This document shows positions 1,107-27,724 of a DNA stretch of 32,000 nt, piece by piece. Source of the stretch: an uncultured Candidatus Babeliaceae bacterium (GTDB lineage: Bacteria > Babelota > Babeliae > Babelales > Babelaceae). Made by a program: the position numbers and the translations under genes. The first letter of the stretch is position 1. The number at the start of each line of letters is the position of its first letter. The stretch is taken from contig CAYYBE010000006.1 of the NCBI GenBank assembly GCA_964470345.1, positions 65,098 to 97,097 on the forward strand, given 5' to 3'. Under the pieces are notes generated by a model. It saw only the letters and a program-made list of their open reading frames with translations. It ran no database searches and had not been told where the DNA came from.

Positions 1107-1433
1107 GACTTTTCCTGTTTCGACTCTGCCTTTGACGCCAGGATTGCTGCTGCGACTATTTGCTGGAGCGTCATGGTTTTGATTGAAACGTCGCGCGGGT
1201 TACATGGCGCTTCTGAAAGCGCTATTTGGTGCGTGGCGCACTGTTTTCCGAGGGTTGCCTCGCAAAGAACTTTCTCTCGCGACCTCGAAGATATCCCGCA
1301 GCTTGCTGCGTGGGTTCTTCACTTCGCCTCCACCAGTGTGCTAATCTCACAGCAATGATGCGAAAGTTAACAAGCTTTTGGTTCGCGTAGTGCGTTCCAA
1401 CTTCTCATTTTTCATTGTTGGAAGGAACGTCAT
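1107..1433. other. Anomalously GC-rich, hairpin-rich spacer upstream of tlc (candidate structured RNA, leader or decayed gene; function unknown)
   Basis: My hand count over 1141-1320 gives about 54% G+C, against about 35% for 1441-1500 in the adjacent CDS. Short GC hairpins: GCGCTT-ctga-AAGCGC (1207-1222), GTGCG-tgg-CGCAC (1229-1241) and CGCAG-cttg-CTGCG (1297-1310). I recognised no known RNA family. Confidence 0.3.
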
Positions 1434-2852
1434 ATGACAAGTTTACGAACTTCATTTGGAGAATATACGAATCGAGTTATTCGAATTTTATGGGGAGAAA
1501 TGAGCCCTGAAGAGCTCAGAAAGTTTTGGATTTTATCGTTTACATTTTTTCTATTGATCGGCGTGTACTATTTTATCCGTTCTATGAAAGATCCTGTATT
1601 TTCTATTTTTGTTGGATATAAGTATCAGCCTTTTGCAAAGATGTTATCTCTTTTTGTGACGGTGAGTGCCGTTCTTTTCTATAACAAATTAGTTGATGTT
1701 TTTAAGCGAAATGTTCTCTTCTATCTGCTGAGCATTTTTTTTGGCGTTGGTTTTTTGCTTCTTGGCTATGCGATAGCACATCCAACGATATGTGAAGTTG
1801 GCGCAGATTCAACGTTAGGGGGCATGCTTACGTGTCTTCCAGGTAAAGCATTGGGCTGGGTTGTCTACTGCTTTATCGAGAGTTTCGGATCAATTATGCC
1901 AGCGCTCTTTCTTGCAATTATGGCAAGTACCATGACTACCGAATCTGCTAAAAAAGGGTATGGAATGGTCTACTGCTTTGCGCAGCTTGGACTTATTTTG
2001 GGAGCATGGGCAGTGGTTCAGTTTGTTGGATCGGTGGGTTTCGGCAGTATGTTTGCTCTCGGTGGAGCTTTACTTTGTTTTCTCCCATTGCTTATGAAAC
2101 GGTATACCGTTATTTGTGCAGAAATCGATGCGCAAAAACCGGTGGCGCAGCAAGCGGCTCTCGTTCAAGAAAAGCCTAAAACAGGAATATTTGAAGGTTT
2201 GCGTTTATTAGTTAAGAATCCATATATCGCCGGTTTGTTAGTGGTTACTACGATGTATGAGGTTGTTAATACCATTGTTGAGTTTCAAATGGGAATGTGT
2301 GCAAACGAAGTATACCCTGTGGCGGCAGATGGTGGTGCAGGATTTGCTTGGTTCAAAGCATGGAATGGTGTTGCTATTGGGTTTTTATCACTTTCTTTTG
2401 CGCTCGTCGGTACAAGTTTTCTTATGCGTAAATTTGGTCTTAAATTTTGTCTGGTATCGTTTCCTTCATTGATGGGTATTGTGATTGCTCTTTTGTTTGG
2501 CTTATATATCGGCGGTGCAAGTACCTATTTGCTGATGTGGGCGTTTTTTGGTGCCGTTGTCATATTCAAGGGTCTGAGCTATACCCTGAATAATCCTGCA
2601 AAAGAAGTCATGTATATTCCAACGAGCAAAGATGTAAAGTTCAAATCAAAAAGCTGGATTGACGGCTTTGGCGGAAGATCTGCAAAGGGATTAGGTGCGG
2701 TGACGACCGGATCGCTTGGAGGCAACTTTTCTCTCTTAGTGATATTTGGAACAGTTATCTCGCTTGGCATTATAGCGTTCTGGGTCTTTGTTGCTGCTTA
2801 TGTTGGTAACAAATTTAATGAACTGCAACGTGATAATAAAATTATTGAATAG
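1434..2852 (+). CDS. tlc: ATP/ADP (nucleotide) translocase, TLC/Npt family
   Basis: 472-aa polytopic membrane protein. The N-terminal block FWILSFTFFLLIGVYYFIRSMKD and the C-terminal block MYIPTSKDVKFKSKSWIDGFGGRSAKG match, from memory, the conserved blocks of rickettsial and chlamydial Tlc/Npt carriers (..NYSTLRSIKD.. and ..[29 protein letters not shown]..). SD-like GGAAGGA at 1420-1426 lies 7 nt before the ATG. Confidence 0.75.
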   Translation: MTSLRTSFGEYTNRVIRILWGEMSPEELRKFWILSFTFFLLIGVYYFIRSMKDPVFSIFVGYKYQPFAKMLSLFVTVSAVLFYNKLVDVFKRNVLFYLLSIFFGVGFLLLGYAIAHPTICEVGADSTLGGMLTCLPGKALGWVVYCFIESFGSIMPALFLAIMASTMTTESAKKGYGMVYCFAQLGLILGAWAVVQFVGSVGFGSMFALGGALLCFLPLLMKRYTVICAEIDAQKPVAQQAALVQEKPKTGIFEGLRLLVKNPYIAGLLVVTTMYEVVNTIVEFQMGMCANEVYPVAADGGAGFAWFKAWNGVAIGFLSLSFALVGTSFLMRKFGLKFCLVSFPSLMGIVIALLFGLYIGGASTYLLMWAFFGAVVIFKGLSYTLNNPAKEVMYIPTSKDVKFKSKSWIDGFGGRSAKGLGAVTTGSLGGNFSLLVIFGTVISLGIIAFWVFVAAYVGNKFNELQRDNKIIE

Positions 2853-2861
2853 AGGTAATTT

Positions 2862-3512
2862 GTGATCAAAGCAGTTATTTTTGATATGGACGGGCTTATG
2901 GTCGACAGTGAGCCGGTACACTTTAAAGCATATGAACAGGTTTTAAGTGAACTTGGTATAGCAGTTCCTGAAAGCGATTACGCAGAGCATTACGTTGGTA
3001 TTTCTGACGGTGATGCTGCACGAGATATTGTGAAACGCTATCATTTGCCGATAAGCGCCGAAGAATTACTCGTGCGTAAATCAGCGGCATTTGCACAGTT
3101 GCTTCCAGGTCACGTTGTGCCGAAAAAAGGGCTTTTTGATCTTCTTAAAAATTTGCGGCTGCATGAATATAAAACTGCAGTTGCTTCAGGAGCGATGTTG
3201 CCTGATATCGAAAAAATTGTTACAGCACTTGGATTGCAAGATTCTTTTGATACGCTTTGTTCGGCAGAGCAAGTGGCTCATGGCAAACCAGCTCCCGATT
3301 TATTTCTTTTGGCAGCGCAAAAACTGGGAGCACAGCCAGCTGAGTGTTTGGTGCTTGAAGATGCACCGGTAGGAGCGCAAGCGGCGCATGCTGCTGGCAT
3401 GAAATGTTACGCTATACCCAGCAGGGAAACAAAGGGTCGAAACTTTGTAGGTGCAGACAAAGTGCTTAATAGTCTTGATGATGTATGGAGTGCATTGGGG
3501 CAAGAGAAATAG
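2862..3512 (+). CDS. HAD-superfamily hydrolase, subfamily IA (beta-phosphoglucomutase-like phosphatase)
   Basis: GTG start 9 nt after the tlc stop, preceded by AGAGG. Motif I VIFDMDGLMVDSEP (DxDGxxxDSE), motif II AVASGA, and a C-terminal GKPAPD ... VLEDAPVGAQAAHAAGM (K and ED motifs III/IV). Confidence 0.8.
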   Translation: MIKAVIFDMDGLMVDSEPVHFKAYEQVLSELGIAVPESDYAEHYVGISDGDAARDIVKRYHLPISAEELLVRKSAAFAQLLPGHVVPKKGLFDLLKNLRLHEYKTAVASGAMLPDIEKIVTALGLQDSFDTLCSAEQVAHGKPAPDLFLLAAQKLGAQPAECLVLEDAPVGAQAAHAAGMKCYAIPSRETKGRNFVGADKVLNSLDDVWSALGQEK

Positions 3513-5379: not shown

Positions 5380-5440
5380 GGGAGCTTTGGGAAGAAGGGA
5401 TAAGGGGAGCCTTTTTGGGGAGGTAGGCGGGGGAGTTGGG
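5380..5440 (+). other. Cluster of seven G3-G5 tracts (G-quadruplex-type motif on the + strand, C-rich on the - strand)
   Basis: GGG at 5380-5382, 5389-5391 and 5397-5399; GGGG at 5404-5407 and 5417-5420; GGGGG at 5429-5433; GGG at 5438-5440. Loops are 4-9 nt. The first four tracts satisfy G3+N1-7 x4. Confidence 0.4.
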
Positions 5441-5550
5441 TGCAACTCCCAAATTTCTTAGAAAAATTAGGAGTGTCGCTCCTGTTTTTAATACAAATTT
5501 GAGGATCGACACTCCTCGAATTTGCGCAAAAACTAGGAATTCGATTCCCA
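5431..5550. promoter_or_regulatory. Four tandem units of about 35 nt, each a short GGAG/CTCC-type hairpin followed by an A/T-rich spacer, plus a 10-bp long-range inverted repeat
   Basis: Hairpins: GGGAGTT/AACTCCC (5431-5437 / 5444-5450), AGGAG/CTCCT (5469-5473 / 5479-5483), GAGGA/TCCTC (5501-5505 / 5513-5517) and GGAAT/ATTCC (5536-5540 / 5544-5548). AGGAGTGTCG (5469-5478) is the exact reverse complement of CGACACTCCT (5507-5516). Palindrome TTTGCGCAAA at 5521-5530. The element lies between the divergent permease and AAA-ATPase genes. Confidence 0.4.
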
Positions 5551-5615
5551 ATTTTATATACTTACAGGTGTGGTGGTGCGAGGTCACCGTTTCTGGGTCA
5601 CAAAAAGGAGTTTTT

Positions 5616-6743
5616 ATGTTTAAGCGATATTACCAAGATCTTGGCTCGTATCTGAAGCCGAACCGGGCGCTGGTCATATTTGGCCCTCGCCGGGTTGGTA
5701 AAACAACACTCTTAGAAGAGTTTTTGAAAACAACGAAGCTCAAATATAAACTTGATACGGGTGATAATCTTAAAATTCAAAATCTTCTCGGTTCACAGGA
5801 TTTAGATCAAATTGTTGAGTATGCCCGCGGATATGATGTCATTGCCATCGATGAAGCTCAGCAAATTCCCAATATTGGTATGGGGTTGAAGATTTTAGTT
5901 GACCATGTCCCTGGCTTGTCAGTTATCGCAACCGGATCGTCATCTTTTGGTCTATTGCAACAAATTGGTGAACCGCTTACGGGAAGAAAAACGACGCTGA
6001 CGCTTTATCCGCTGTCTCAGATGGAATTGTTAAAACGATATAACAAATATGAACTACGGGAACAGCTAGAAAACTCTTTGATTTTTGGTGGGTATCCAGC
6101 TGTTGTTTCCGCAGAAACAAGAGAGGAAAAGATTAAGTTGCTCAATGAAATCGTAGACTCCTATTTGTTAAAAGATATTTTCGTTCTCGATAAAGTTAAA
6201 AAATCAGAAACACTTTTAAATTTAGTTAAGCTCTTGGCATTTCAGGTAGGTCAACTCGTTTCTCATTTTGAATTGGCGATACAGTTACAAATCGACCCAA
6301 AGACAGTAGCTCGTTATTTGGATTTGCTTGAGAAGTCATTTATCATAGTTAAGCTTGGCGGTTTTAGCAGGAATCTTCGCAATGAAATTACGAGCAAGCA
6401 TAAGTATTATTTTCTTGATTTAGGTGTACGCAATGCCGTTATTGCTCAATTTAATGATTTGCCTATGCGTCAAGACCAAGGGGCTTTGTGGGAAAATTTT
6501 GTGTTTATTGAACGACTTAAGAGCGGTGCTTATAAAGGCTTTTACGGTTGGCGCTATTTCTGGAGAACGTACCAAGGGCAGGAAGTTGATATTGTCGAAG
6601 ATATAGAAAATCAGCTGCATGGCTTTGAAGCAAAGTGGTCGACAGTAAAACGGGTGAGCGTGCCATCTGAATGGAAAGAAAAATATGCGAATTCTTCATT
6701 TACGGTTATTACCCCAGACAACTATCTTGATTATGTAACATAA
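5616..6743 (+). CDS. AAA+ ATPase with C-terminal DUF4143-type (PD-(D/E)xK-like) domain (AAA_14 family)
   Basis: I chose ATG 5616 (MFKRYYQD...), which has AAAGGAG at 5603-5609, instead of the track start at 5436. Walker A GPRRVGKTT, Walker B VIAIDEAQ, and a C-terminal QEVDIVED...FEAKWS nuclease-like motif. Confidence 0.8.
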   Translation: MFKRYYQDLGSYLKPNRALVIFGPRRVGKTTLLEEFLKTTKLKYKLDTGDNLKIQNLLGSQDLDQIVEYARGYDVIAIDEAQQIPNIGMGLKILVDHVPGLSVIATGSSSFGLLQQIGEPLTGRKTTLTLYPLSQMELLKRYNKYELREQLENSLIFGGYPAVVSAETREEKIKLLNEIVDSYLLKDIFVLDKVKKSETLLNLVKLLAFQVGQLVSHFELAIQLQIDPKTVARYLDLLEKSFIIVKLGGFSRNLRNEITSKHKYYFLDLGVRNAVIAQFNDLPMRQDQGALWENFVFIERLKSGAYKGFYGWRYFWRTYQGQEVDIVEDIENQLHGFEAKWSTVKRVSVPSEWKEKYANSSFTVITPDNYLDYVT

Positions 6744-6829: not shown

Positions 6830-7816
6830 ATGTCGGGAACCTATGATGAAGCTTTACTCAAAACAATCGAAGTGGAAAGCGCTCGATTTCAACAACTGAC
6901 AGTCGAGATTAACAAAGTAGTAATTGGGAATAAAGAGTCGATAGACTTTATTCTCACAGCATTGCTGTGTAATGGTCACGTATTGCTCGAAGGAGTGCCG
7001 GGTGTTGCAAAGACAACGATGATCAAAACGATTGCGCAAGCATTAGGATTAAGCTTTAAGCGCATTCAGTTTACGCCCGATCTTTTGCCTTCAGATCTTA
7101 TCGGGACATTAATTTACAATCAAAAGACGATGGACTTTGAAACAAAAAAAGGTCCTATTTTTGCGAACTTGATTCTTGCTGATGAAATTAACCGCGCGCC
7201 AGCAAAAGTGCAAGCAGCGCTCTTAGAGGCCATGCAAGAGCATCAAGTAACAATCGGCAACACGACCTTTAAACTGGAAGAACCATTTTTTGTTTTTGCT
7301 ACGCAAAATCCGATTGAGCAAGAAGGAACGTATCGACTTCCCGAAGCACAGGTTGATCGATTTTTGTTTAAAGTGATTATTGGCTATCCATCACTCAGCG
7401 AAGAAAAAGAAGTGGTGCGCTCGCAACAGCGATCTGCCGATGTTTCTTGTATACTACAAACATCTGATATTCTTGCAGCGCAGGCGTGTGTACAAAAGAT
7501 TTTTATCGACGAAAAGATTATCGATTATATTTTGCAGATCGTTTTTGCAACACGTGATCCGCAAGCGTACGGTTTGTCTGATCTCAAAAATTATATTGCA
7601 TGTGGAGCTTCACCGCGTGCGAGTCTCGCATTACATCATGCTGCACGTGCACAAGCATTTTTAAAGAAGCGCCAATTTGTTACGCCTGATGATGTTAAGG
7701 CGGTAGTATATCCCGTTTTGCGCCATCGCATTGCATTGACCTATCAAGCCGATGCAGAAAATATGACGACTGAACAAGTTATTGCAAAAATTTTGGCGAC
7801 CGTACAAGCACCGTAA
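6830..7816 (+). CDS. MoxR-family AAA+ ATPase
   Basis: Walker A GVPGVAKT, Walker B LADEINRA, FATQNPIEQEGTYRLPEAQVDRF, and a C-terminal lid GASPRASLAL. These are the canonical MoxR/AAA_3 features. Confidence 0.9.
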   Translation: MSGTYDEALLKTIEVESARFQQLTVEINKVVIGNKESIDFILTALLCNGHVLLEGVPGVAKTTMIKTIAQALGLSFKRIQFTPDLLPSDLIGTLIYNQKTMDFETKKGPIFANLILADEINRAPAKVQAALLEAMQEHQVTIGNTTFKLEEPFFVFATQNPIEQEGTYRLPEAQVDRFLFKVIIGYPSLSEEKEVVRSQQRSADVSCILQTSDILAAQACVQKIFIDEKIIDYILQIVFATRDPQAYGLSDLKNYIACGASPRASLALHHAARAQAFLKKRQFVTPDDVKAVVYPVLRHRIALTYQADAENMTTEQVIAKILATVQAP

Positions 7817-8030: not shown

Positions 8031-9350
8031 ATGAATATTACGATCAAAAATCCCTGGTGGATATTAAATAGCGCATTCGTTGCGTTGCTTTTGGTGTTGT
8101 TGGCCATTATTCTGCTTATTCGGCCTTCAGCTCCTGCAAGCGCGTCTCTTAATGCTGTTCTCGGAGAAGCTTCGACAGCTGCTACTGCGCGCCGTATTGA
8201 TCTTTCACAAATCTATCGCAATGATCTCTTTGGTACACACATTGAACAACAGGCGCTTGCCGAAACAAAAGAGCAAAAGCCTGAAGTGGTTGTTCCACTG
8301 CCGCCACCACCGCAACCAGCTGCCATTGTTCAGCAACAAATTCCGCAATTTTTGCCTCCCCTTGCGCTGTCAATAAAAGGGATTATGTATTCAAATAATG
8401 AGCTTGATAATCGAGCAATTATTGCCGACACTAAATCACGTCGTGAAGCATTGTATCGGCTGGGAGATAAGCTTCTTGATGCAGAAATTATCTATATCGG
8501 GAACAATAAAGTTATGTTTATTCGTTCCAATGGGCAACAAGAAACGTTATTTGTAACGGCAGAAGATGCGCAACATGATCCGATCTATCGTCAACGTAAG
8601 CTGGGAGAACAAGTTGCACGAAAAATGTCAGAAACCGACTATATCTTATACCCTGATATTTTTAAAGAACGTATTACGACAATGGCCCAATTTTTAGATT
8701 CGCTTGATATAACGACTGCATGGGAACAGGGGAAGATTTTAGGACTTCGCATTGGTAAACTCGGCTTTGATTCAATAGCTCCATCGCTTGGTTTGCAGCC
8801 AGCAGACATTGTTACTACAATCGATGGAATTCCATTGCTCAATACTGAAAATCGTACCAAAGTATTTCGTGCACTTACTACAGCAGAGCTGGGGAAAGTA
8901 ATTGAAGTAAAACTTCTACGCTCAGGGCAGCCAATTTCCTATCGATATACATTACAAGAAAAAGATGAAGATTTTACACAAGATGTCGAACAAGTTTCTT
9001 TGGCGAGAACATTTATCCCGCGTGAGATAGCGCAAGCGGTTCCAGCTCCTCAAATGCAGGCTCAAGCGCCACAAGCTTTGCCCGAGCAGACTGCTGCTGT
9101 TGGAGCACCATACTTTGCAACAGAGCAGCCGCCGACTGAGCCATCTCAGGCGGAGCCGCAAGTGGCCCAGTCAACGACTGAACAGTCATTAACTGAGCAG
9201 TCGCCAGTAGATTTGTCTTCGGCGGTGCCCCAAGAACAGCAAAAGCTTGGATCGATTGGAAATCCCCTTGAACAGATTCAAAAAAGAGACAGAGAATCTA
9301 TGATGGCATTTGGAGGGCGAAATGCCATGCTAGAACCAGCACAGTCTTGA
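8031..9350 (+). CDS. GspC-like protein: N-terminal TM helix, HR (PilP-like) domain, PDZ domain and a Q/P/E-rich C-terminal tail
   Basis: TM segment WWILNSAFVALLLVLLAIILLI. The HR-like segment IKGIMYSNNELDNRAIIADTKSRREALYRLGDKLLDAEIIYIGNNKVMFIRSNG fits the GspC HR pattern. PDZ-like GLRIGKLGFDSIAPSLGLQPADIVTTIDGIPL. The stop lies 1 nt before the secretin start. Confidence 0.6.
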   Translation: MNITIKNPWWILNSAFVALLLVLLAIILLIRPSAPASASLNAVLGEASTAATARRIDLSQIYRNDLFGTHIEQQALAETKEQKPEVVVPLPPPPQPAAIVQQQIPQFLPPLALSIKGIMYSNNELDNRAIIADTKSRREALYRLGDKLLDAEIIYIGNNKVMFIRSNGQQETLFVTAEDAQHDPIYRQRKLGEQVARKMSETDYILYPDIFKERITTMAQFLDSLDITTAWEQGKILGLRIGKLGFDSIAPSLGLQPADIVTTIDGIPLLNTENRTKVFRALTTAELGKVIEVKLLRSGQPISYRYTLQEKDEDFTQDVEQVSLARTFIPREIAQAVPAPQMQAQAPQALPEQTAAVGAPYFATEQPPTEPSQAEPQVAQSTTEQSLTEQSPVDLSSAVPQEQQKLGSIGNPLEQIQKRDRESMMAFGGRNAMLEPAQS

Positions 9351-9351
9351 G

Positions 9352-12090
9352 GTGAAAAAGATGTTTAGTAAGCATAATCATACAAAGTTGAGACAAGTAC
9401 TTTTGCTCATGATAAGCATGAGCGGTTATCTGTGTGTTGCTCAACGAGCGCCTTTAGGTGATTTGCTTGCAGAAAATTCTGACATTCCAAAGCCTGGAGT
9501 ACCGAACGTGGCTCCTCAAGCTCCTCTTGTAGTGCCCCCTGTGCCAGCTGCGCCAATGCCTACTGCTCCTCTCAAGCCCCAAGAAGTGGGAGTAGAACCA
9601 GAAGAAAAAATTTCTGAGCAAGAACTACAAGCAGAAGATATAACGGCCAAAGAGCGCCAAGATGAAGATGCAATAGCTTTGCTTGAACGTAAAAAACCAG
9701 AAGAGCAAGGGGAAACAAAAGAGAGATTTTTCCAAGAACAAATTGTGTCAACCATAACAGAAGACAAAGCGAAGAAAAAAAGTAAAAAAGGTGTTGAAGA
9801 AGACTGGGAAGAAAAGACTGCGGTGAAGGGCAATGACGATATTCTTGCCAAAAGCAAATCGCAAATCTACCTTAAAGAATATTTAGAGCCATGGAAGCAT
9901 GGTGATAGCGATGAGCCAATCGAGTTTCTTTTTGATAACGCTGAACTGTCTGCTCTTATTGAATATGTTGAACAAAGATTTCGCATTAAATTTATTATGG
10001 ATGATGATATTCAGCCTTTGCCTCAAGGCGCAAAAAGTATTATGGGAACAAAAATCTCATTCCGGACGCATAAGCCGCTGAGCCGAAAAGATGCATGGAA
10101 TCTCTTTGTTGCTTTTCTTGATATGGCCGGCTTCACGCCAGTTCCTGGTCCAGGGCCACGAATCTATAAGTTAATGGCCTCTCAAGACCCACGAGCACCC
10201 CAAGGGGCTTCGCGATCACCATTACCTCTGTTTATTGGTGTTGATCCTGAACTTGTTCCCAATAATGATACACGTGTTCGTTATGTCTACTTTGTTGTGA
10301 ATACAAGCCTTGAGGTAATCAAAAATGTTGTTGCTTCTATGCAAAGCGTTTCCGCGCCCAGCTTGATTCCTCTTCCAGAATTGAATGCGGTTATTATTAC
10401 TGACAAAGGTGCTAACGTCCGTGCGATATTAGCAATTGTAAAAGAGTTAGATCAAGCGAATATGCCTGAGACATTAGCGGTTGTAAAATTAAAACATACT
10501 GACGCAAGCAAAGCTGCGCAACTGTATAATTCATTAGTGCAAAAAGATGGACAGCAAGGAGCTATGCGCTTTTGGGGACCTCGTCGACAACAGACGGTTG
10601 ATTATTTCTCTGAAGGATTACGAGTTATTCCTGAACCGCGCTCGAACTCATTGATTTTATTGGGATCACAAGAATCAGTAAAAAAAGTAACCAATTTTAT
10701 TGTTGAGATGGTTGATAAGCAGAGCACGTTGCCACTTACGCCGGTCTATACGTACCATCTAAAGTTTTTAGATGCAGAAGTTATGGCAAAAATTCTGAAT
10801 GAAACGACACAATTTCAACCGGGTACAGAAGCGGCAAAAGCTGGTGGCGTTCGTGATGGTGATAAATATTTGAAGCAGATGATAGTTGTCCCAGAAAAGG
10901 CAACCAATAGTCTTATTATTAATGCTGATTATGATGATTATTCAAAAATAAAACAGCTGATTGAAGAGCTTGATGTTGAGCAGCCGCAGGTGATTTTAAA
11001 AGTCTTTATTCTTGGCGTTGATTTGACCGATCAGCGGCAAATGGGTATGCAACTGCGTAATAAAAAACCTGGAGTTAAAGGGCTTATTAGCGATAAGGTG
11101 AATTTTCAGACGTCAGGTCTTGTTGGAACGAATCCGAGTGCATCGGTAGTTGAGAATACGAGTGGAAGCGGCTCGCAGCGGTTGTTAGGTGATTTAATTA
11201 ATCTTGCTTCTCAAGGAGTGCCTGCGGGATCAACGTTAGTGACATTGGGCAGTGATGTCTTTGGGGTGTGGGGAATTTTAAATATGTTGCAGACCTATAC
11301 CCATACAACATTAATAGCAAATCCATTTTTAACAGCAACACATAAATATCAAGCAGAGTTTTCTATAGGTGAAAGGCGACGTGTCCAAACATCAACAACC
11401 AGCGGGACACAGACCATAGCAAACTTTGGTCCTTTAGATGCTAATTTAAATATATCAATTGTGCCCCAGGTAAGTAGAGAAGATCTTGTAACCCTTAACA
11501 TTAATATTGATATTAATGCGTTCACTGATGCCAATGTAGATTCAACAAATGGAAATCGTATTCTGCGAAATATACGCACTTCGGTCATTATCGCTGACAA
11601 TGAAGTGCTTGCTTTGGGTGGATTGGTAAAGGAACAGACGGTGACAGCGACAACAGGTATTCCTATTTTGAAAGATATTCCTTTGATAGGGTGGCTTTTT
11701 AAGAACAGATCAAAGTCGGTACAAAAAACAAGTTTACTTATTTTGGTTGTTCCTGAAATCATTCGGCCAAAAGATAGAGATGCTATCGATCTCTTCACGC
11801 GCTCAAAAATTCTTGATTCAAAAGACATATCGCGTGGATTTATCTCCCCAAGTACTACACGAGATCCAGTGCATCGTTGGTTCTTTAGTGATCAGAAAGA
11901 TACGGAAAATGAGGCAATCGATGAATATACGAGCTTTCAAGACAGGTATAACGGAGAGCGTTCTGCTGCACATAAAAAGAGTATGAAAGCAAAAGTTGCA
12001 GAATTTGATCTGCCTCGATTATCAAAAGCCGAGCAAAGCATGCGTGACAAGGCGCTTGCCAATCATACCGTTGTTGGAGCGATAGATTAG
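9352..12090 (+). CDS. gspD: GspD-type secretin 1 (signal peptide, long disordered linker, N0-N1-N2-N3, secretin core, C-terminal tail)
   Basis: GTG 9352, with an alternative ATG at 9361. Signal peptide ending CVA-QR. N0 IEFLFDNAELSALIEYVEQRFRIKFIMDD. Three N1-N3-like repeats, each ending ..AVIITDKGANV.., ..NSLILLGSQESV.. or ..NSLIINADYDDY... Secretin core from QPQVILKVFILGVDL to GIPILKDIPLIGWLFKNRSKSVQKTSLLILVVPEII. Confidence 0.85.
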   Translation: MKKMFSKHNHTKLRQVLLLMISMSGYLCVAQRAPLGDLLAENSDIPKPGVPNVAPQAPLVVPPVPAAPMPTAPLKPQEVGVEPEEKISEQELQAEDITAKERQDEDAIALLERKKPEEQGETKERFFQEQIVSTITEDKAKKKSKKGVEEDWEEKTAVKGNDDILAKSKSQIYLKEYLEPWKHGDSDEPIEFLFDNAELSALIEYVEQRFRIKFIMDDDIQPLPQGAKSIMGTKISFRTHKPLSRKDAWNLFVAFLDMAGFTPVPGPGPRIYKLMASQDPRAPQGASRSPLPLFIGVDPELVPNNDTRVRYVYFVVNTSLEVIKNVVASMQSVSAPSLIPLPELNAVIITDKGANVRAILAIVKELDQANMPETLAVVKLKHTDASKAAQLYNSLVQKDGQQGAMRFWGPRRQQTVDYFSEGLRVIPEPRSNSLILLGSQESVKKVTNFIVEMVDKQSTLPLTPVYTYHLKFLDAEVMAKILNETTQFQPGTEAAKAGGVRDGDKYLKQMIVVPEKATNSLIINADYDDYSKIKQLIEELDVEQPQVILKVFILGVDLTDQRQMGMQLRNKKPGVKGLISDKVNFQTSGLVGTNPSASVVENTSGSGSQRLLGDLINLASQGVPAGSTLVTLGSDVFGVWGILNMLQTYTHTTLIANPFLTATHKYQAEFSIGERRRVQTSTTSGTQTIANFGPLDANLNISIVPQVSREDLVTLNINIDINAFTDANVDSTNGNRILRNIRTSVIIADNEVLALGGLVKEQTVTATTGIPILKDIPLIGWLFKNRSKSVQKTSLLILVVPEIIRPKDRDAIDLFTRSKILDSKDISRGFISPSTTRDPVHRWFFSDQKDTENEAIDEYTSFQDRYNGERSAAHKKSMKAKVAEFDLPRLSKAEQSMRDKALANHTVVGAID

Positions 12091-12104
12091 AAGGGAAAAT
12101 CACA

Positions 12105-13646
12105 ATGATGAAAAATCTTTTTATACCACAATCTATTGGTGATTTTTCTCTGTTTACTCAGCGCATTGTTGCTCTTGAGTTTACAGAAACTGAAGTCTTA
12201 TGCGCTCTTGTTGTCTGGCATGGTAAAAGAAAGACCATAGAAAAAGTACTACAAGAGCCTATTTCGCAAGATGTTACAATTGCCCTGAAAGATCGTTCGA
12301 TAGCTGCGTTAAAGCGAGTAATGGAACAGATCGGTTCGTATACAAAAATTATAGCTGTTGTGCCAAGCTCAAAGGTTATTTTTAAAGAGATTTCTGTTCC
12401 TGCAATGAGCTGGCAAAAAATAAAGATGTTGTTGCCTTTTGAGATTGAGCCTCTGCTCCCCTTCTCCTTAGATCAGGCTATGGTTGATGGAGTTGTTATT
12501 CGGCAGGGATCGCAAGAACAAAAAACAGAAGTATTAGTAGCGGCAGTCAAGCAAGACATTATGCAAGAACTGCTGGGATTGCTGGCTGACGCTCAAATTA
12601 AGCCTCATGTTGTCACGACCGACCTTGTAGAGCTTTATAGTTTTTATCGTGCATTACCAGAATATACTTCTGATACCCAAACTACGCTTGTGCTTGATCT
12701 AGAGCCTTCGTATGTCCGTTTACTCATGTTGGTCGACGGCAAACTTTCTGCATTTCGCGTTATTCCTCAGGGGTTGGACCATAACGACCAAGATAGCTAC
12801 CAGGCGCTTTTTGCAACGATTAATGTAACGGTAGAGAGTTTCTTAGCTAAAGTACAAAAAGAGCATATCGAAAACATTATTCTTTGCGGTAAAGGCGTTG
12901 AAACACCGGGAATGCAGGAGTTGGTAACTGATCGCATGCATGCTCCATGTCATGTAGCTCCACTGACGCAGCTTTTGCATGAAGGAATTATCCAAACGAA
13001 ACAAGAGCTTGTGGAAAACAATCGATGTATTGTACCGGTAACGGCAGCGCTTTCATATCCAATGACTGAAGATTTTAATCTTGATACCCATGCTGCGGAT
13101 CAACAGGTAAATTCACTGCTGACCAAACAGCTTATTATTACGCTAGTGCTTATTGGTAGCCTATTTATTATGGTATTGACCAACTCAATTATTACGCAAC
13201 GCAATTTGAATGAGGAGTTTGCTGCGCGTGAACAACAGGCAATTAGTCATATTACGCAACAGTTAAATCTTGTTCTTCCCAAAGCACATGCCGGCAAAAA
13301 AACGACGCTTACGATTGATCAAGTCAATAATTTGGCACAGGCGAAAGTGGTAAAAGAAGAAGAGCTTTGGTTCACGCTCTCCAGCCAAAACAGATTTCTA
13401 TTTTTGGATTATCTTCAAGAGTTAAGCACTCGTCTTAATCGACAGGATCTCGGTTTAGAATTGCGGCAGCTTGTTATGACCGAAGATACGATAACGCTTG
13501 AAGGTCGTGTAAAAAACTTTGAAGCACTGCGAACGTTTGAAGAAGATTTAAATCAATCAAAAATGTTTAAGAGTATCCAAAAACCACAAGATCTTAAATT
13601 TATCGTTAAAATGGTTCTTGATAAATCGCAGAGGGAAGAAGCATGA
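12105..13646 (+). CDS. PilM-PilN fusion / GspL-like assembly-platform protein (cytoplasmic actin-like domain, one TM helix, periplasmic ferredoxin-like domain)
   Basis: The N-terminal roughly 330 aa follow the PilM/GspL pattern (IVALEFTETEV.., AVVPSSKVIFKEISVPAM, LLPFEIEPLLPF, TLVLDLEPSYVRLLMLVDGK). TM segment LIITLVLIGSLFIMVLTN. The C-terminal alpha/beta domain is LGLELRQLVMTEDTITLEGRVKNFEAL. AAGGGA lies upstream of the ATG. Assignment rests on architecture and pattern, not on a search. Confidence 0.6.
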   Translation: MMKNLFIPQSIGDFSLFTQRIVALEFTETEVLCALVVWHGKRKTIEKVLQEPISQDVTIALKDRSIAALKRVMEQIGSYTKIIAVVPSSKVIFKEISVPAMSWQKIKMLLPFEIEPLLPFSLDQAMVDGVVIRQGSQEQKTEVLVAAVKQDIMQELLGLLADAQIKPHVVTTDLVELYSFYRALPEYTSDTQTTLVLDLEPSYVRLLMLVDGKLSAFRVIPQGLDHNDQDSYQALFATINVTVESFLAKVQKEHIENIILCGKGVETPGMQELVTDRMHAPCHVAPLTQLLHEGIIQTKQELVENNRCIVPVTAALSYPMTEDFNLDTHAADQQVNSLLTKQLIITLVLIGSLFIMVLTNSIITQRNLNEEFAAREQQAISHITQQLNLVLPKAHAGKKTTLTIDQVNNLAQAKVVKEEELWFTLSSQNRFLFLDYLQELSTRLNRQDLGLELRQLVMTEDTITLEGRVKNFEALRTFEEDLNQSKMFKSIQKPQDLKFIVKMVLDKSQREEA

Positions 13647-14203
13647 TGGGCTTTGATCGAATCCGTGAATATATAAAGAAGCTTGATCCTCAGCAGCTTT
13701 ATCGAGCGATAGGGATCGTCTTTGGTGTTGTGTTACTCATGATGAGCTTTTTGTTGTATAGCTACTATAGTGAAACGCAACAGCTTGAGCGTAAATTAAG
13801 AAGACTGAATCAACAACGAGAACAAGCCCGTGCCATTTTGGAACGATATGCAAAAGTTTTACAGCAACGGGCTAAGGTCGATGAAATCTTGGCAAAAGAT
13901 AAAAATTTTAAAATAATCCAATATTTTACGAATATTGAACAGAGATTGCAGTTAACACAACTCAGAATACGAGAGCCTGAAATTGCATCCGAAGAAAAAG
14001 TTGATGGATATACGGAAATTAAACTTACCGTTACACTTGGTGGCATCAATATGAAACAAGTGGCAGACTTGCTCTATGCTCTTGAGCAAAATGAACGGGT
14101 GTATATAAAAGAGTTGACTCTTACAAAGATGCAAGGGGCACCACTTGTTGATATGTCTTTGGTTATCGCAACGTTTGAAGCGACGACAACCGTAGAAGAA
14201 TGA
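13643..14203 (+). CDS. PilO / GspM-like bitopic protein
   Basis: ATGA start/stop overlap with the upstream gene. Short cytoplasmic N-terminus, TM AIGIVFGVVLLMMSFLLYSYY, coiled coil, then YTEIKLTVTLGGINMKQVADLLYALEQNERVYIKELTL. This matches the PilO/GspM topology and C-terminal pattern. Confidence 0.5.
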   Translation: MMGFDRIREYIKKLDPQQLYRAIGIVFGVVLLMMSFLLYSYYSETQQLERKLRRLNQQREQARAILERYAKVLQQRAKVDEILAKDKNFKIIQYFTNIEQRLQLTQLRIREPEIASEEKVDGYTEIKLTVTLGGINMKQVADLLYALEQNERVYIKELTLTKMQGAPLVDMSLVIATFEATTTVEE

Positions 14204-14235
14204 GGGGCCCGTAGGAAACAATGAGGGATTGACTC

Positions 14236-16785
14236 ATGAAAAAAATATGCGGAATTTTACTTGTTTGCTTGGTATATACGAGCGGTAGTATGTTTGCGCA
14301 AGATGCAGACGAACAAGAAGCTGCTCTTAAAAAAGAGCAATCAGCTGGCGTTGCCAGTGATGTTGAACGACTTGAAAAACAGGTGACCAAAGAGATGGCT
14401 AAAGGGGTTGATATCGAAGAAGAGGTCACTCCTGAACTCGTAACATCTGAAGAACCAGTAGAGGAAGTTAAAAAAGAAGAAGAAAAAGCGTTTACTACAA
14501 AGAAAGATAAACGAACGCTGGTAAAATTTGATTTTGAAAATGAAGATCTGGTCAATGTTATTAATAAATTTGCCGCACTCCAGCATAGTAATATTATTCT
14601 TCCCTACGGCGCACAAGCGATTACCCAAAAAATTACCTTTAGATTAGGGAAAAAAATATCTCTGGCTGAAGCTGAGCGTTATTTAGATACATTTTTAGAC
14701 ATTGCTGGATACACCAAAGTACCACACGGTGATTTCTTTACCGTTGTAAAAGTTGATCCCAATATTACGCGTGAAACATTACCGTTATATGTTGGAGTTC
14801 CTCCCAAAGACTTGCCGTCGAGTGGGCGTATTCAAGTTGTGTACTATCTCCAGAATTTAAAAGTACCAGAAAGCAGCCAAGGAACCGATCCGTTGCATGT
14901 TATTTTTAATGACATGCTTTCTGTTAATCGCAGCTATACGTTTGACATTAAGGCAAACGCAGTTATTGTCGCTGATAAAGCAAGTAATATTAAGGCGGCG
15001 ATGACTATGTTACTTGAGCTTGATTCGATGGGAATCCATGATGTTGTTCGTAAAATGCAGCTTTATCATGCTTCAGCAACCATGTTAGCACCTCTTTTGC
15101 AGCAGCAAATCATAGCAGTAACCGGTGATCAACGTGGTCGTTTGCGTGCAGATGTAAGATCAGAAGCGGGATTGTTTTTTGCTCCAGGAACCAAAATTGT
15201 TGCTAATCCTCAAGACAACTCGCTCGTGCTTATGGGAAAAGAGCCTTCTGTTGCTCGTATTATGGATTTTGTTAATGAGTATCTCGATGTGCCGCTTGAA
15301 TCAGGTCGTTCTATTTTGCACTATTATGACTGCCAATATCTTGATGCAGAGGCTTTCGCAGCGGTTTTGAAACAAGTGGTCGCTACGCAATCGCGTTCAG
15401 GACAAGCGACAACCGATCAAGTATCCGGACCAAATCGCTCCTTTGAAGGTGTTATTATTGCCGCTGAGTCAATTGTGAAAGAGGAAGTCAAAAAAGCAGA
15501 AATAGCCTTAGCAAAAGAGGGTGAATCAATCTTGAAAGGAACGGTATTCCGAGGAGGAAACCGTATTGTTGTTGCGGCAAAAAATAGCGATTGGGAGCGT
15601 ATTGAAAGGCTTATTAAAGAGATAGACAAGCCGCAACTTCAGATAATTTTGCAAGTTATGATTGTTGATTTTACTGCAGACAAAAACAAGATTTTTGGGA
15701 TGCAAACGCGAAACCCTTCAACGATGCAACTTCCTCATGGTGTAAATTTTCAAGCAGCTAATCTGGCTGCTCCTATTCTTGTTTCAAACACTGCAACAGA
15801 GACTCCAACAACGTTAGCAACTGACCTGCTTATGTTGCTTGGTGGAACGGCTACCACGCCCCCAACCCAAAGCGAGGCAAAAATTTTGACCTCATCTTCA
15901 ACTGGTGATCCCGGCTCCTTGATACTCTCATTATCTGATCCTGCGGGTACCGGCATTTGGACCTTTTTGCAATGGCTTAATTCTTTTGGAGAGTTAAAAG
16001 TGCTTTCTCACCCCTATCTTGTGGTTCTTAATAATCAAAAGGGTGAGGAATCTCTTACTCAAACACAGCGATTGCAAGGACAATCAAGAACTGGTGAAGG
16101 TGGTGCAGTTGTTTCCGAAATTGATGACGTTCCTGCATCATTGAAAGTAAGTATTGTACCGCGTGCAAGTTCAGTTGATCGTCTTAACATTCAAGTTTCA
16201 ATAAAAATTGATCAATTTGAAGGAACTAAGGGAAATATAGCGACTCGAGAACTTCACACGAATGCTAACTTGAATAGTGGTCAGATGTTGGTTCTCGGAG
16301 GCCTTGCCTCGATCAATCAGACTGATGAAGAGAATGAAACACCGCTTTTGGGAAAAATACCAATTATTGGTTGGTTATTCTCAAGCAAGTCAAAAGCTTC
16401 GCGAAAAACCAATCTTGCTGTTTTTATTATTCCAACGATTGTTGAACCAAAAATTCGTTCAGGGCTCAATAAATATACAAGAGATAGAATTGCGATGTCT
16501 TATGGAGATATAGAAAGTGGAGCTCTTTTTGAACAATTTAAGGATCCTATTAACTACCTCTTCTTTAAAGATAGGAAAAATGAGTCAGCCGAAACTCTCG
16601 ATGAATATTTGGCTGAAAGTAAGGGTAATTTTGTGCGCCCACCCAAAATGCGTGGGCCTCGCGGGCCTAAAAGACCCGAAGAACAGGACAAAATTATTCC
16701 TCAAGAGGCCCATCAACTTAAGGTTATGCTTGCAGGAGAGCAAAATCCTGTGCTTTCAGTGAAGAATGGAAAGACGACGTTCTAG
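14236..16785 (+). CDS. gspD: GspD-type secretin 2, paralog of secretin 1
   Basis: Signal peptide ending MFA-QD, an E/K-rich linker, and N0 VKFDFENEDLVNVINKFAALQHSNIILP. N1-N3 repeats (..NAVIVADKASNI.., ..NSLVLMGKEPSV.., ..NRIVVAAKNSDW..). Secretin core from KPQLQIILQVMIVDF to TPLLGKIPIIGWLFSSKSKASRKTNLAVFIIPTIV. GAGGGA lies upstream of the ATG. Confidence 0.85.
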   Translation: MKKICGILLVCLVYTSGSMFAQDADEQEAALKKEQSAGVASDVERLEKQVTKEMAKGVDIEEEVTPELVTSEEPVEEVKKEEEKAFTTKKDKRTLVKFDFENEDLVNVINKFAALQHSNIILPYGAQAITQKITFRLGKKISLAEAERYLDTFLDIAGYTKVPHGDFFTVVKVDPNITRETLPLYVGVPPKDLPSSGRIQVVYYLQNLKVPESSQGTDPLHVIFNDMLSVNRSYTFDIKANAVIVADKASNIKAAMTMLLELDSMGIHDVVRKMQLYHASATMLAPLLQQQIIAVTGDQRGRLRADVRSEAGLFFAPGTKIVANPQDNSLVLMGKEPSVARIMDFVNEYLDVPLESGRSILHYYDCQYLDAEAFAAVLKQVVATQSRSGQATTDQVSGPNRSFEGVIIAAESIVKEEVKKAEIALAKEGESILKGTVFRGGNRIVVAAKNSDWERIERLIKEIDKPQLQIILQVMIVDFTADKNKIFGMQTRNPSTMQLPHGVNFQAANLAAPILVSNTATETPTTLATDLLMLLGGTATTPPTQSEAKILTSSSTGDPGSLILSLSDPAGTGIWTFLQWLNSFGELKVLSHPYLVVLNNQKGEESLTQTQRLQGQSRTGEGGAVVSEIDDVPASLKVSIVPRASSVDRLNIQVSIKIDQFEGTKGNIATRELHTNANLNSGQMLVLGGLASINQTDEENETPLLGKIPIIGWLFSSKSKASRKTNLAVFIIPTIVEPKIRSGLNKYTRDRIAMSYGDIESGALFEQFKDPINYLFFKDRKNESAETLDEYLAESKGNFVRPPKMRGPRGPKRPEEQDKIIPQEAHQLKVMLAGEQNPVLSVKNGKTTF

Positions 16786-16801: not shown

Positions 16802-17356
16802 TTATTTTTTGGGGGCCGGAGTTTCGACAAGGCCGAGCTTTCTGTCCCGATCGTCTTTTTCGTAAAGTGATCGGCTCGAACGTTCACATTTTGTAAGAGA
16901 AACAACCTTGCTGCAATCAATAGGTTTGCACTTAGTTGCGTAGTTGGCAGAGGAAGCGCTTGCTGCTGGTGTTGCTCCTTCAATGTCTCCCTGGAGAAAA
17001 AGATCATTTGGGCATGTGGTAGACGAACTATTTCCTTCGCAGCGGTAACAGGCGATTCGAGCTGGTTTATCTGTTGCATTTCTAAAAAGCTGAGATTGTA
17101 GCCAATCGCATCGAAATCCTAGGAAAAACTCTTTGGAGGGGTTGCTCATATTAACGAGGCGAATCATGTCATACGGTGTTCGGTCAGGCAATGTAATGGA
17201 CGAAATTTGTACAAGACTGAGTTCATTGGGCTTACTTTTGAGCTCAATAACATCGGTTCCCTCAGGGATTTTTACAATCTTACATGAAGGTAACATACCC
17301 CATTGGTACGCTGTATTGGTTGTGAATATGAGAAAAAGAGTTAATTTCTTAAGCAT
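16802..17356 (-). CDS. Hypothetical secreted Cys-rich protein
   Basis: 184-aa ORF with a hydrophobic N-terminus (MLKKLTLFLIFTTNTAYQ), ten Cys mostly in the C-terminal half and a K/D/R-rich tail. AGGGG lies upstream of the ATG. I recognised no family. It is convergent with secretin 2 across a 16-nt gap. Confidence 0.5.
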   Translation of the reverse strand: MLKKLTLFLIFTTNTAYQWGMLPSCKIVKIPEGTDVIELKSKPNELSLVQISSITLPDRTPYDMIRLVNMSNPSKEFFLGFRCDWLQSQLFRNATDKPARIACYRCEGNSSSTTCPNDLFLQGDIEGATPAASASSANYATKCKPIDCSKVVSLTKCERSSRSLYEKDDRDRKLGLVETPAPKK

Positions 17357-21466: not shown

Positions 21467-23590
21467 TTACTCAAAAGCGATTGTGCCATTACGCAAGCGC
21501 ACTGAAACGTTTTTAGTTTCAGGCTTATGTAATAAAAATTGAGCTAATGGAACAATAACAAGATTTTGCAGTGCGCGTTTTAAAGGGCGGGCGCCGAATT
21601 CTGGTTCATAACCCTCGTCTGCCAATTTCTCAAGAACATCAGGAGCAACGGTGAGTGTAACTTGTTGTTCGGCAAGCCGTTTTTGCAAAAGTTGCATCTG
21701 AATGCCAGCAATCTGAGCCACATCTTGCTTGGTAAGAGCTTTGAAAAAGACAATTGCATCAATTCGATTTAAAAATTCTGGTCTAAAACTCTTTTGTAAC
21801 AGTTGCTCAATATCCCGCTTAACTTTGTCATTGAGTGTGCCTGCAGCAAGAATAAGATCAGAGCCAAGATTTGAGGTCATGATAATAATTGTGTTTTTAA
21901 ATGAGACAATGCGTCCTTGCCCATCCGTAAGATGTCCCTCATCAAGGATCTGTAAGAAGATGTTAAAGACATCGGGGTGCGCTTTTTCTATCTCATCAAT
22001 CAGTAAAACACTATACGGTTGTCGCCGAACCGCTTCGGTGAGTTGTCCACCCTCTTCATAACCAACATAGCCGGGCGGAGCGCCAATTAAGCGGGCAACC
22101 GCATGTTTCTCCATGTACTCTGACATATCGACGCGTATGAGCCGTTTATCGTCGTTAAAAAGAAAGTCAGCTAATGTTTTAGCGACTTCAGTTTTTCCAA
22201 CGCCGGTTGGTCCTAAAAATAAGAACGAGCCAATGGGCTTATTCGGGTCGGTAAGGCCGGTGCGGTGCATTTGAATTGCGTTGGTGATTGCGGTAATCGC
22301 TTCATCTTGGCCAACAACACGTTGTTGGAGGATTTCTGCCATCGAGAGCAATTTTTGCTTTTCGCTTTCTTGTAATTTTTCAACCGGGATGCCGGTCCAG
22401 CGAGAAAGCACCGTTGCAATATCTGATTCATCAACTTCTTGTTTTACTAAACCATGTTTGAGCTTTTTGACCTGCTCTTGTTCGTCGGCAAGCGATTTTT
22501 GGAGTTTGGCTAAAACACCATATTTTACTTGTGATGCTTGAGCAAAATCCCCTTCCCGCTCTGCTTGTGCAAATTTATTTTGTGCTCGCTCGATCTCTTC
22601 TTTGAGTTTATTAATTCGTTCAAGAGGTGCTTTTTCTGCCTTCCACTGTTGTACCAGTGCGCCATGCTGCTCTTTAATGTTGGCAAGCTCTTGTTCAAGA
22701 TCTTTGAGCCGTTTTTGGGATACAGGATCATCTTTTTCTTTGGTCAGCGCAACTTTTTCGATTTCTAATTGACGAATGACTCGATCAAGTCGGTCGATTT
22801 CTTCTGGTTGGGAGTCGATTGACATTTTGACGGTAGCTGCAGCTTCGTCAATAAGGTCGATAGCCTTATCTGGCAAAAAACGGTCGGGAATATATTTGCT
22901 TGAAAGTTGTACGGCGTTTACCAATGCCTGATCTTTAATGCGAATTTTGTGGAAGAGTTCATAGCGGTCCTTGAGCCCGCGTAAAATTGAAAGCGCATCT
23001 TCGACCGAAGGTTCTGGTACAAATACTTTTTGGAATCGGCGTTCGAGTGCCGCGTCTTTTTCAATATATTTTTTATACTCTTTCAGCGTTGTTGCGCCAA
23101 TACAGTGCAGCTCTCCGCGTGCAAGTGCAGGCTTAAGCAAGTTTGAGGCATCCATGCCGCCGCCAGCTCCGCCCGCGCCAATAAGCATGTGCATCTCATC
23201 GATAAAGAGAATAATTTTACCAGCGCTTTCTTGTATCTCTTGTAAAATTCCCTTTAAACGCTCTTCAAATTCTCCTTGGTACTTAGTACCAGCGATGAGC
23301 AGCCCCATATCAAGTGCATAGATAACAGACTGTTTTAAGCTTTCGGGAATGTCATTATTGACGATTCGTTGGGCGATACCTTCGACGATTGCTGTTTTTC
23401 CAACCCCCGGTTCTCCAATAAGCACCGGATTGTTTTTTGTTCTACGTGACAGAATTTGAATCACGCGCCGGATTTCTTCATGGCGTCCGATAACAGGATC
23501 AAGTTTTCCTTGTTCGGCGAGTTTGTTAATGTTTTTGCAATATTTTTCAAGCGTTTCGTATACTGCCTTTGTCTTTGGTTCTTGCATCAT
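21467..23590 (-). CDS. clpB: ClpB disaggregase lacking the N-terminal Clp_N domain
   Basis: NBD1 GEPGVGKT / ILFIDEMH, a long coiled-coil middle domain, NBD2 GPTGVGKT / [16 protein letters not shown], and C-terminal GARPLKR. The ORF begins at ..[24 protein letters not shown], which corresponds to about residue 150 of E. coli ClpB (from memory). Confidence 0.9.
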
Positions 23591-25336: not shown

Positions 25337-25529
25337 GCGAGCTCCACTTTTTAAACCTAGTCAGATTTACTTTTCTCTACTTATTATCTCTAGTATACCA
25401 GAAATCAAAAACAGGTCCATTATTTCAATTTGTAAATTAACATCAGAAAGAAGTTGATTTACGCACAGGGTAAAATCAGGTATAGTTGATTCGATGTGAG
25501 TTCTTTTTCAGCGTGTTTTGGGGGTTTTT

Positions 25530-27355: not shown

Positions 27356-27577
27356 ATGAAGCGTTGTGTTGTTGGGGTAGTGCTTGCTCATGTTGCACTG
27401 AGTGGGATGCATAAAATTACCCGTAATCCTTTTGCTCCTGTTCCCCTTGCCGATAATGAATTAATTGCGACAGCCTATATTCACACGACTCATACGAATG
27501 TGAATTTTATGGTACAGGGTAAAAAGATTACAGCTGTTGTGGGCGGAAAAAAACCCCTTCAACTTTATAAAAGCTGA
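27356..27577 (+). CDS. Small secreted protein, possibly a miniature PilP/HR-like protein
   Basis: Strong SD TAAGGAG (27346-27352) before the ATG. Signal-like N-terminus, an RNPFAP motif (compare the R-D/N-P-F motif I associate with PilP N-termini), and a short beta-rich tail ELIATAYIHTTHTNVNFMVQGKKITAVVGG. The functional call is weak. Confidence 0.3.
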   Translation: MKRCVVGVVLAHVALSGMHKITRNPFAPVPLADNELIATAYIHTTHTNVNFMVQGKKITAVVGGKKPLQLYKS

Positions 27578-27724
27578 AGGGTTAGGGGGGTAACAATACA
27601 AAAAATGTATCGTTACTTAGGGACATTAAAAACAGAAACTCTTGCATGACAAGAGATCTAAATCCATTTCGAAGTCCAATGCTATCAGGAGAGTTTACGT
27701 GTGTCAAATTTTAAAAGGAGAAAG

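Follow-up and report, generated by a model that had tools for sequence, protein, structure and literature searches.

A conserved operon with two GspD-type secretin genes in Candidatus Babeliaceae and other Dependentiae

Introduction

The DNA considered here, called the window in the following, is a stretch of 32,000 nucleotides from an uncultured Candidatus Babeliaceae bacterium (assembly GCA_964470345.1, contig CAYYBE010000006.1, positions 65,098 to 97,097). From a six-frame list of its open reading frames (ORFs), a cluster of five genes was recognized on the plus strand at positions 8031–16785, in the order gspC, secretin 1, a fusion of PilM- and PilN-like parts of the GspL type, a gspM with weak support, and secretin 2. 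Type II secretion systems (T2SS) usually have a single secretin gene, whereas this operon contains two full-length paralogues.

That gspD occurs twice in Dependentiae (TM6) has been known from publications since 2015. Yeoh et al. (2016, PMC4776705) noted that pilQ is absent and gspD present in two copies in all TM6 genomes, and suggested, as a question to be settled, that one of them may replace pilQ; a "derived pulD channel" was mentioned by Deeg et al. (2019, PMC6561590). In the literature searched, no description was found of the operon order C-D-L-M-D, of a single ancient duplication, of a descent of the L and M genes from a T2SS, or of a divergent gate in the second secretin. A sequence-only reading of the window, made before the present analysis, had spoken of an undescribed architecture in a host-dependent bacterium. 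The first part of this statement has to be narrowed, since the two gspD copies were already reported (PMC4776705); the operon order and the history of the paralogues seem to be unpublished. The second part fits, since a TLC ATP/ADP translocase is encoded in the window and the homologues found carry the name Dependentiae.

Organization of the Locus

The genes of the operon, with the MoxR-type ATPase gene preceding it, are listed in Table 1. Signal peptides were assigned by visual inspection, with the help of N-terminal helices seen in AlphaFold2 (AF2) models.

Table 1. Genes of the two-secretin operon and the adjacent upstream gene (positions in the window; TM, transmembrane).
Gene or product	Position	Strand	Properties
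MoxR-type AAA+ ATPase	6830..7816	+	Pfam AAA_3 2.1e-66, AAA_lid_2; 214-nt gap to gspC
gspC-like	8031..9350	+	439 aa; N-terminal TM helix, HR ~aa 100–180, weak PDZ ~aa 230–310, Q/P/E-rich tail
secretin 1 (gspD1)	9352..12090	+	912 aa; signal peptide, ~130 aa disordered Pro/charged linker, N0-N1-N2-N3, barrel, C-terminal helices
gspL-type PilM-N fusion	12105..13646	+	513 aa; cytoplasmic actin-like domain, TM helix near aa 340–365, periplasmic domain
gspM-like bitopic protein	13643..14203	+	186 aa
secretin 2 (gspD2)	14236..16785	+	849 aa; signal peptide, ~75 aa acidic linker, N0-N1-N2-N3 (N3 with insertion), barrel, C-terminal helices

The junctions are short throughout. As read from the sequence, gspC and secretin 1 are 1 nt apart (TGA, g, GTG start), or 10 nt if an alternative in-frame ATG of secretin 1, 9 nt further on, is used. 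Secretin 1 and gspL are separated by 14 nt which include AAGGGA, gspL and gspM share 4 nt (an ATGA overlap of stop and start), and 32 nt including GAGGGA lie between gspM and secretin 2. Gene order and tight junctions had been proposed earlier, and ORF coordinates and junction lengths agreed exactly with that proposal. A consensus scan of the window yielded 22 promoter-like sites (expected 20.7 ± 3.9) and 14 terminator-like sites (expected 9.6 ± 3.3), i.e., no enrichment of either, and no site of either kind at any junction of the operon; the scan thus gave no indication of independent units with promoters or terminators of their own. We infer that the five genes are co-transcribed, although an internal promoter for secretin 2 is possible despite the background-level scan.

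Properties of the Two Secretins

Both secretins are full-length proteins of the GspD type and not of the PilQ type. The Pfam Secretin domain was matched with E-values of 9.8e-34 (secretin 1) and 1.7e-33 (secretin 2), together with three and two Secretin_N stretches, respectively, and the GspD N0 domain scored 29.2 bits in secretin 1, above the Pfam gathering cut-off (GA), whereas secretin 2 with 21.5 bits stayed under it. The NCBIfam model for GspD (TIGR02517) gave 256 bits with secretin 1 and 226 bits with secretin 2, compared to 126 and 114 bits, respectively, with the model for PilQ (TIGR02515); neither protein reaches the cut-off of either model (351 for the GspD equivalog, 284 for PilQ), and all five proteins of the operon score below NCBIfam equivalog cut-offs. 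In the PDB, the best match of secretin 1 was GspD of V. cholerae (1.3e-34; residues 233–806, which span N0 through the complete barrel), and those of secretin 2 were GspD structures, matched in two stretches (1e-20); matches to PilQ were much weaker (1e-13 for secretin 1, 1e-8 for secretin 2).

The AF2 models, with predicted local distance difference test (pLDDT) values of 72 for secretin 1 and 66 for secretin 2, consist in both cases of a disordered charged linker followed by N0, N1, N2, N3, the barrel and C-terminal helices, with lower confidence at the N3 insertion of secretin 2. PulD (6hcg_A) was the best Foldseek match of both models (4.4e-37 for secretin 1, 6e-27 for secretin 2). The two proteins are 28% identical over about 700 amino acids, their common C-terminal extension included. 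Mean distances among 13 genomes were 1.18 for secretin 1 and 1.35 for secretin 2, which means similar rates; GspL and GspM evolve faster. The possibility that one of the secretins is a degenerate copy can be ruled out, since both are full-length, possess all domains, and evolve at similar rates, more slowly than GspL and GspM. The sequence-only reading had likewise described both as intact, with N0 to N3 and secretin core, and Pfam, AF2 and Foldseek concur in this.

A difference between the two was noticed at the hinge of the gate. The hinge glycine was defined as the residue aligned to G453 of V. cholerae GspD in the PDB alignment of secretin 1 (the G453A mutant is PDB 5wq9). It is present in all 25 sequences of the secretin 1 clade, in 15 of 20 outgroup secretins, and in 5 of 19 sequences of the secretin 2 clade; the corresponding residues in the window are G673 in secretin 1 and T608 in secretin 2. 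Judged by this alignment position, the central gate of secretin 2 is diverged.

A C-terminal motif, (R/K)DPxxxxFF, is specific for the Dependentiae lineage and common to both paralogue families. It is located in predicted helices about 30 residues past the barrel, at residues ~836–846 of secretin 1 (RDPxxxxFF) and ~768–778 of secretin 2 (KDPxxxxFF) in the window; the consensus is RDPIHRWFF in the first family and RDPVTYLFFK in the second. The motif may be an S-domain-like element for assembly or for binding of a pilotin.

Identity of GspC, GspL and GspM

The gspC product was matched by Pfam T2SSC with 36.3 bits (GA 27), so that a GspC with an HR domain stands next to gspD, as in T2SS. PDZ_6 scored 16.8 bits, under its GA of 27, and the best NCBIfam model was GspC_delta with 75 bits, under the cut-off of 150. 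The HR region, with a mean distance of 0.77, was the most conserved segment of the operon that was measured, and gspC was found directly upstream of secretin 1 in 16 of 16 other genomes examined.

For the gspL product, PilM_2 was the best Pfam match (69.9 bits), T2SSL was just over its GA (26.1 bits; GA 25.5), and PilN was under GA (19.1 bits). Its actin-like domain, TM helix and periplasmic domain are those of a GspL protein of T2SS. The gspM product scored only 17.4 bits with Pfam T2SSM (GA 27.8) and 30.5 bits (2.6e-7) with NCBIfam GspM_XpsM, under the cut-off of 60, and sequence and profile searches of the PDB gave nothing relevant. T2SSM was the most recurrent Pfam match of the gspM orthologues (7 of 17, best value 2.2e-5). 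Alignment of the Dependentiae GspM family by hhalign with the gene that follows gspL in a classical operon (L021) gave a probability of 63% and an E-value of 7e-5 over 139 columns. The homology of the two middle genes to GspL/PilM-N and GspM, as proposed earlier, is thus established by Pfam for the first; for the second it is weakly supported, with T2SSM below GA.

A second GspM-like gene was considered at 26749–27279 on account of an NCBIfam match of 4.6e-7, and was rejected; BLAST, Pfam and PDB searches were unsupportive, and hhalign against the GspM family of the operon gave 14%. This ORF (plus strand) encodes a TM and coiled-coil protein beside a protein with an M23 peptidase domain (25518–26732, plus strand); an ORF of 73 amino acids with a signal peptide and the sequence RNPF is also adjacent (27356–27577, plus strand). 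The 26749–27279 product is more likely related to the divisome or the envelope than to a T2SS.

Comparison with Known Systems

The resemblance to classical T2SS operons of the gspC-M kind (Pul, Eps, Xcp; GspC_delta type) comprises a GspC with HR domain, a GspD secretin, a GspL which is a PilM/PilN-like fusion, a weakly matched bitopic protein similar to GspM, the gene order C-D ... L-M, and the best sequence and structure matches, which are to GspD/PulD. In contrast to these operons, the Dependentiae operon lacks E, F, G–K and O, a second full-length secretin gene follows gspM, and the secretins have long disordered N-terminal linkers as well as the lineage-specific C-terminal motif.

With the pilMNOPQ cluster of type IVa pili it shares a 3'-terminal secretin gene after PilM/N/O-like genes, and PilM_2 as the top match of the L protein. 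There are several differences: no AMIN domain was matched by Pfam, the PilQ model scored both below its cut-off and below the GspD model (see above), and a single GspL-like protein combines M and N. A PilP lipoprotein is missing, the only HR-domain protein being the bitopic GspC with T2SSC, and secretin 2 is the sister of secretin 1 and not of the sampled PilQ-type sequences. Thus, the operon contains neither a PilQ-type secretin nor separate PilM, PilN, PilO and PilP proteins.

In the literature, a pair of secretin-domain paralogues within a single apparatus of T2SS origin was encountered in one case only, that of mitochondria: the T2SS of heteroloboseans, jakobids and malawimonads has two jointly conserved paralogues of the secretin C-domain, GspD and GspDL. 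That system differs in being eukaryotic and nucleus-encoded, with GspD split from its N domains (GspDN1-3), and in having no GspC, L and M. The hybrid T2SS of P. aeruginosa with XphA/XqhA is similar in its extra outer module of GspC/GspD type on a shared inner-membrane machine, and dissimilar in that this module has a GspC-like partner of its own, is located at a separate locus and is not conserved throughout a phylum.

Origin of the Operon

A neighbor-joining tree was constructed from 65 secretin sequences (695 columns, 100 bootstraps), in which distances were saturated and outgroups were limited to sequences returned by a word-indexed search. Bootstrap values were 99 for the secretin 1 clade, 98 for the secretin 2 clade, and 100 for the two together against all other sampled secretins. 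On this tree, secretin 1 and secretin 2 are sister paralogues from a single old duplication, and since the three groupings are supported, the duplication would have preceded the radiation of the sampled Dependentiae.

The closest GspL from outside the Dependentiae (P0197), which came after a sharp drop in score, is encoded in an operon with the order C-D-E-F-G-H-I-J-K-L-M and one secretin; the outgroup secretin P0097 is encoded in a D-E-F-G-H-I-J operon. Because the outgroup of L lies in a classical gsp operon, the best GspC model (GspC_delta) is one for T2SS, the GspM family can be aligned to the gene following L, and the secretins are sisters, a derivation from a T2SS appears probable. The operon is best read as a set of T2SS genes reduced to C, D, L and M by removal of E–K, with a duplicated D placed after M. 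The sequence-only reading had offered, as one explanation, a T2SS-type C-D pair fused to an M-N-O-Q module of a type IV pilus (T4P). This is contradicted by the joint clade of the two secretins and by their best scores as GspD/PulD, and can be ruled out, considering also that the L outgroup belongs to a classical gspC-M operon.

Distribution in Dependentiae

Homologues of secretin 1 carried the source names Candidatus Babeliaceae, Dependentiae and Babeliales, and one GspL homologue was from a Candidatus Chromulinivorax. Scanning of a genome collection with the GspL alignment led to 13 distinct genomes, and others were supplied by protein look-ups; gene order at each locus was obtained by calling ORFs and comparing them, by phmmer, with the proteins of the window. 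The order MoxR-C-D1-L-M-D2 (D1 and D2 being the genes of secretins 1 and 2) was found in 15 other Dependentiae genomes (loci L001, L003, L005, L007–L015, L017, L018 and L022). Among the loci, L001 and L006 represent one chromosome, the contigs of L005 and L009 stop inside D2, and L022 is an assembly of a Chromulinivorax sp.; the most divergent secretin 2 is that of L018. Across these genomes the junctions measure between −26 and +79 nt, with −4 to +79 nt between gspM and D2, and mostly a 4-nt overlap between secretin 1 and gspL.

Where the sequence extends past gspM, D2 was co-retained in 13 of 14 other genomes. The sole genome surveyed without an adjacent D2 is that of locus L016 (CAZGZQ010000002.1, 11605–14336), where C-D1-L-M is followed by genes for a metallophosphoesterase and Lon. 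An exhaustive profile search furnished 690 representatives of the GspL family (clusters of 50% identity, E ≤ 1e-30), so that the module is widespread in environmental Dependentiae; the best 150 of these 690 are nearly all full-length, with ~500–550 amino acids.

The MoxR gene is located 15–267 nt upstream of gspC in 15 of 16 other genomes; at L008 an insertion of 2.5 kb lies between the two genes, and the L009 contig starts inside gspC. MoxR might serve the secretion module as a chaperone, or its position could reflect conserved synteny only. Upstream of MoxR, the context in the window is rearranged: a DUF4143/AAA_14 ATPase is encoded there (5436–6743, plus strand), and other Dependentiae have TIM-SecG-MlaE-MlaF in this place, a difference that points to local rearrangement or to a mobile insertion. 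Downstream of secretin 2 there is a convergent enolase gene. In most genomes besides that of the window it is immediately adjacent to secretin 2 or overlaps its end; in the window a Cys-rich ORF of 184 amino acids (16802–17356, minus strand), with a signal peptide-like N-terminus and no family match, lies between them.

Motor, Platform and Pilin Genes

Profile scans of the other ORFs of the window detected no ATPase, platform protein, pilin or peptidase of a T2SS or T4P, and regular-expression scans of the window and of 17 related loci (±10 kb) detected neither a prepilin motif nor a GspE Walker A motif. For Babela and TM6SC1, Pagnier et al. (2015, Additional file 11, PMC4378268) tabulated the COG counts PulD 3/2, PulE-PilB 2/2, PulF 2/2, PulG 3/0, PilE 1/1, PilV 2/0, PulO 1/1 and PilM 1/1, respectively; in these two genomes there are thus two pairs of motor and platform proteins, compared with one L-type protein. 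The T2SS and T4P genes are scattered over both genomes, and the T2SS was called the only secretion system of Babela by the same authors (PMC4378268). T2SS components and possible T4P components belong to the core genes of TM6 (Yeoh et al., PMC4776705). The earlier statement that motor, platform and pilins are missing nearby is accordingly correct for the surroundings of the operon, within about 10 kb in every genome examined, and has local validity only; two PulE/PilB, two PulF, PulO and pilins are present elsewhere in the genomes of Babela and TM6SC1.

Possible Function of the Two Secretins

The following scheme is proposed, which in our estimation stands evenly balanced between right and wrong: each secretin would form a homo-oligomeric channel of its own, both on one GspC-L-M module, with one channel for each filament machine. 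An ancestral operon of the gspCDEFGHIJKLM type would have lost its E–K genes to other places in the genome, and a single duplication of gspD would have taken place before the lineages of the sampled Dependentiae separated, with both copies intact since then. The two secretins would assemble into separate outer-membrane channels, whose N0 domains would find their docking sites on the one HR domain of GspC and on the GspL-GspM platform. Each channel would be paired with one of two PulE/PilB-PulF filament machines encoded elsewhere, of which one could be a secretion pseudopilus for a large repertoire of secreted effectors, and the other a fiber similar to a type IV pilus or a machine for a second class of substrates. 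Secretin 1 would then be the canonical gated T2SS pore and secretin 2 a specialized copy with a diverged gate. Homo-oligomers were taken as the default because the solved bacterial secretins matched in the PDB are 12- to 15-mers of a single polypeptide.

Alternatively, there could be one T2SS which uses either secretin interchangeably, the two pores differing in substrate range or gating. The single set of C, L and M would be in agreement with this, as would the GspD type of both secretins with their complete N0–N3 and the divergence of the gate hinge in D2 alone. An analogy is provided by P. aeruginosa, where XqhA can substitute for XcpQ. In mirror-tree comparisons, which did not discriminate between the two secretins, GspC distances followed both equally (partial r 0.67 for each with whole proteins; 0.40 against 0.28 when HR was compared with N0), and no pili were seen on Babela (Yeoh et al., PMC4776705). 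Two PulE/PilB and two PulF in Babela and TM6SC1 argue, however, for two machines, and simple redundancy seldom survives divergence at the phylum level in genomes of 1–1.7 Mb, where both copies are, moreover, similarly constrained. Interchangeable pores therefore appear unlikely, if worth keeping in view.

Somewhat more doubtful still is a hetero-oligomeric or coupled secretin, in which the two proteins would form one composite conduit, as a mixed ring or as a pair of coaxial rings, on one GspC-L-M platform. Several observations could be explained in this way: the packing of D1 and D2 into one operon together with their co-retention, the presence of the (R/K)DPxxxxFF motif in both, and the fact that GspC, L and M are each present only once. 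The distance matrices of the two secretins showed the strongest correlation of any pair measured (r 0.94, partial 0.80; 13 genomes), and the mitochondrial paralogues GspD and GspDL have been proposed to build one pore. But correlated rates are expected for paralogues which experience like constraints in the same lineages. No hetero-oligomeric bacterial secretin is known, all solved matches being homomers; at 28% identity, the lateral interfaces of the barrel and those of the N-rings would need to have co-adapted; and the genome of L016 retains C-D1-L-M with no D2 adjacent.

That secretin 2 was repurposed as a large outer-membrane pore with no filament machine, e.g., for uptake of host DNA or nutrients or for envelope architecture, is improbable, for although the hinge glycine is gone in most D2 sequences, N3 contains an insertion with lower AF2 confidence, and Dependentiae import many host metabolites (the TLC translocase in the window being an example), the platform-docking domains N0–N3 are kept and conserved, the gene directly follows gspM with a short junction, and no uptake-specific partner gene is nearby.

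Several points weigh against the proposed scheme of two separate channels. The separate rings are hypothetical, and the location in one operon, the near-universal co-retention and the correlation of distances would fit a D1-D2 complex equally well. With a single GspC, GspL and GspM, a one-to-one pairing of channels and motors is conjecture, and the two PulE/PulF pairs are known from the COG table of two other genomes, not from that of the window. The failure to see pili on Babela, mentioned above, does not favor a pilus-like second machine. In the genome of L016, D2 may be dispensable or relocated. Finally, the identification of GspM is weak, as every model score is under its cut-off, and the paralogue history is drawn from a neighbor-joining tree on a sample of the kind described.

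Other Genes

At 27701–29812 (plus strand) the window contains an ORF of 703 amino acids with a signal peptide-like N-terminus and a C-terminal, E/K-rich coiled-coil tail, for which no Pfam or NCBIfam match was found; its product may be a candidate for a secreted effector. The ClpB gene of the window (21467–23590) is intact, with no match to the Clp_N domain. On the 1.4-Mb chromosome MFD02248 (L001), ClpB appears to be divided, at 697–3256, into five short ORFs, which could represent a pseudogene or frameshift errors of a long-read assembly.

Conclusions

Secretins have been treated as homo-oligomeric pores specified by one gene; here, a phylum of obligate intracellular parasites keeps two diverged GspD paralogues in the same operon as a single docking module. 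The persistence of both through severe genome reduction implies that both are needed. Since signal peptides were predicted on 44% of the proteins of Chromulinavorax (PMC6561590), the export of effectors in bacteria of this type is a subject to which the operon is relevant. Should a mixed ring or two coupled rings be found, this secretin would have no hetero-oligomeric or dual-ring predecessor among bacteria, and it would parallel the mitochondrial GspD/GspDL system, for which the same question of pore composition arises. The question is testable with the cultured representatives Babela, Vermiphilus and Chromulinavorax, and the answer would explain how two filament machines are accommodated in a minimal envelope, or else tell whether secretin rings can combine two kinds of subunits.

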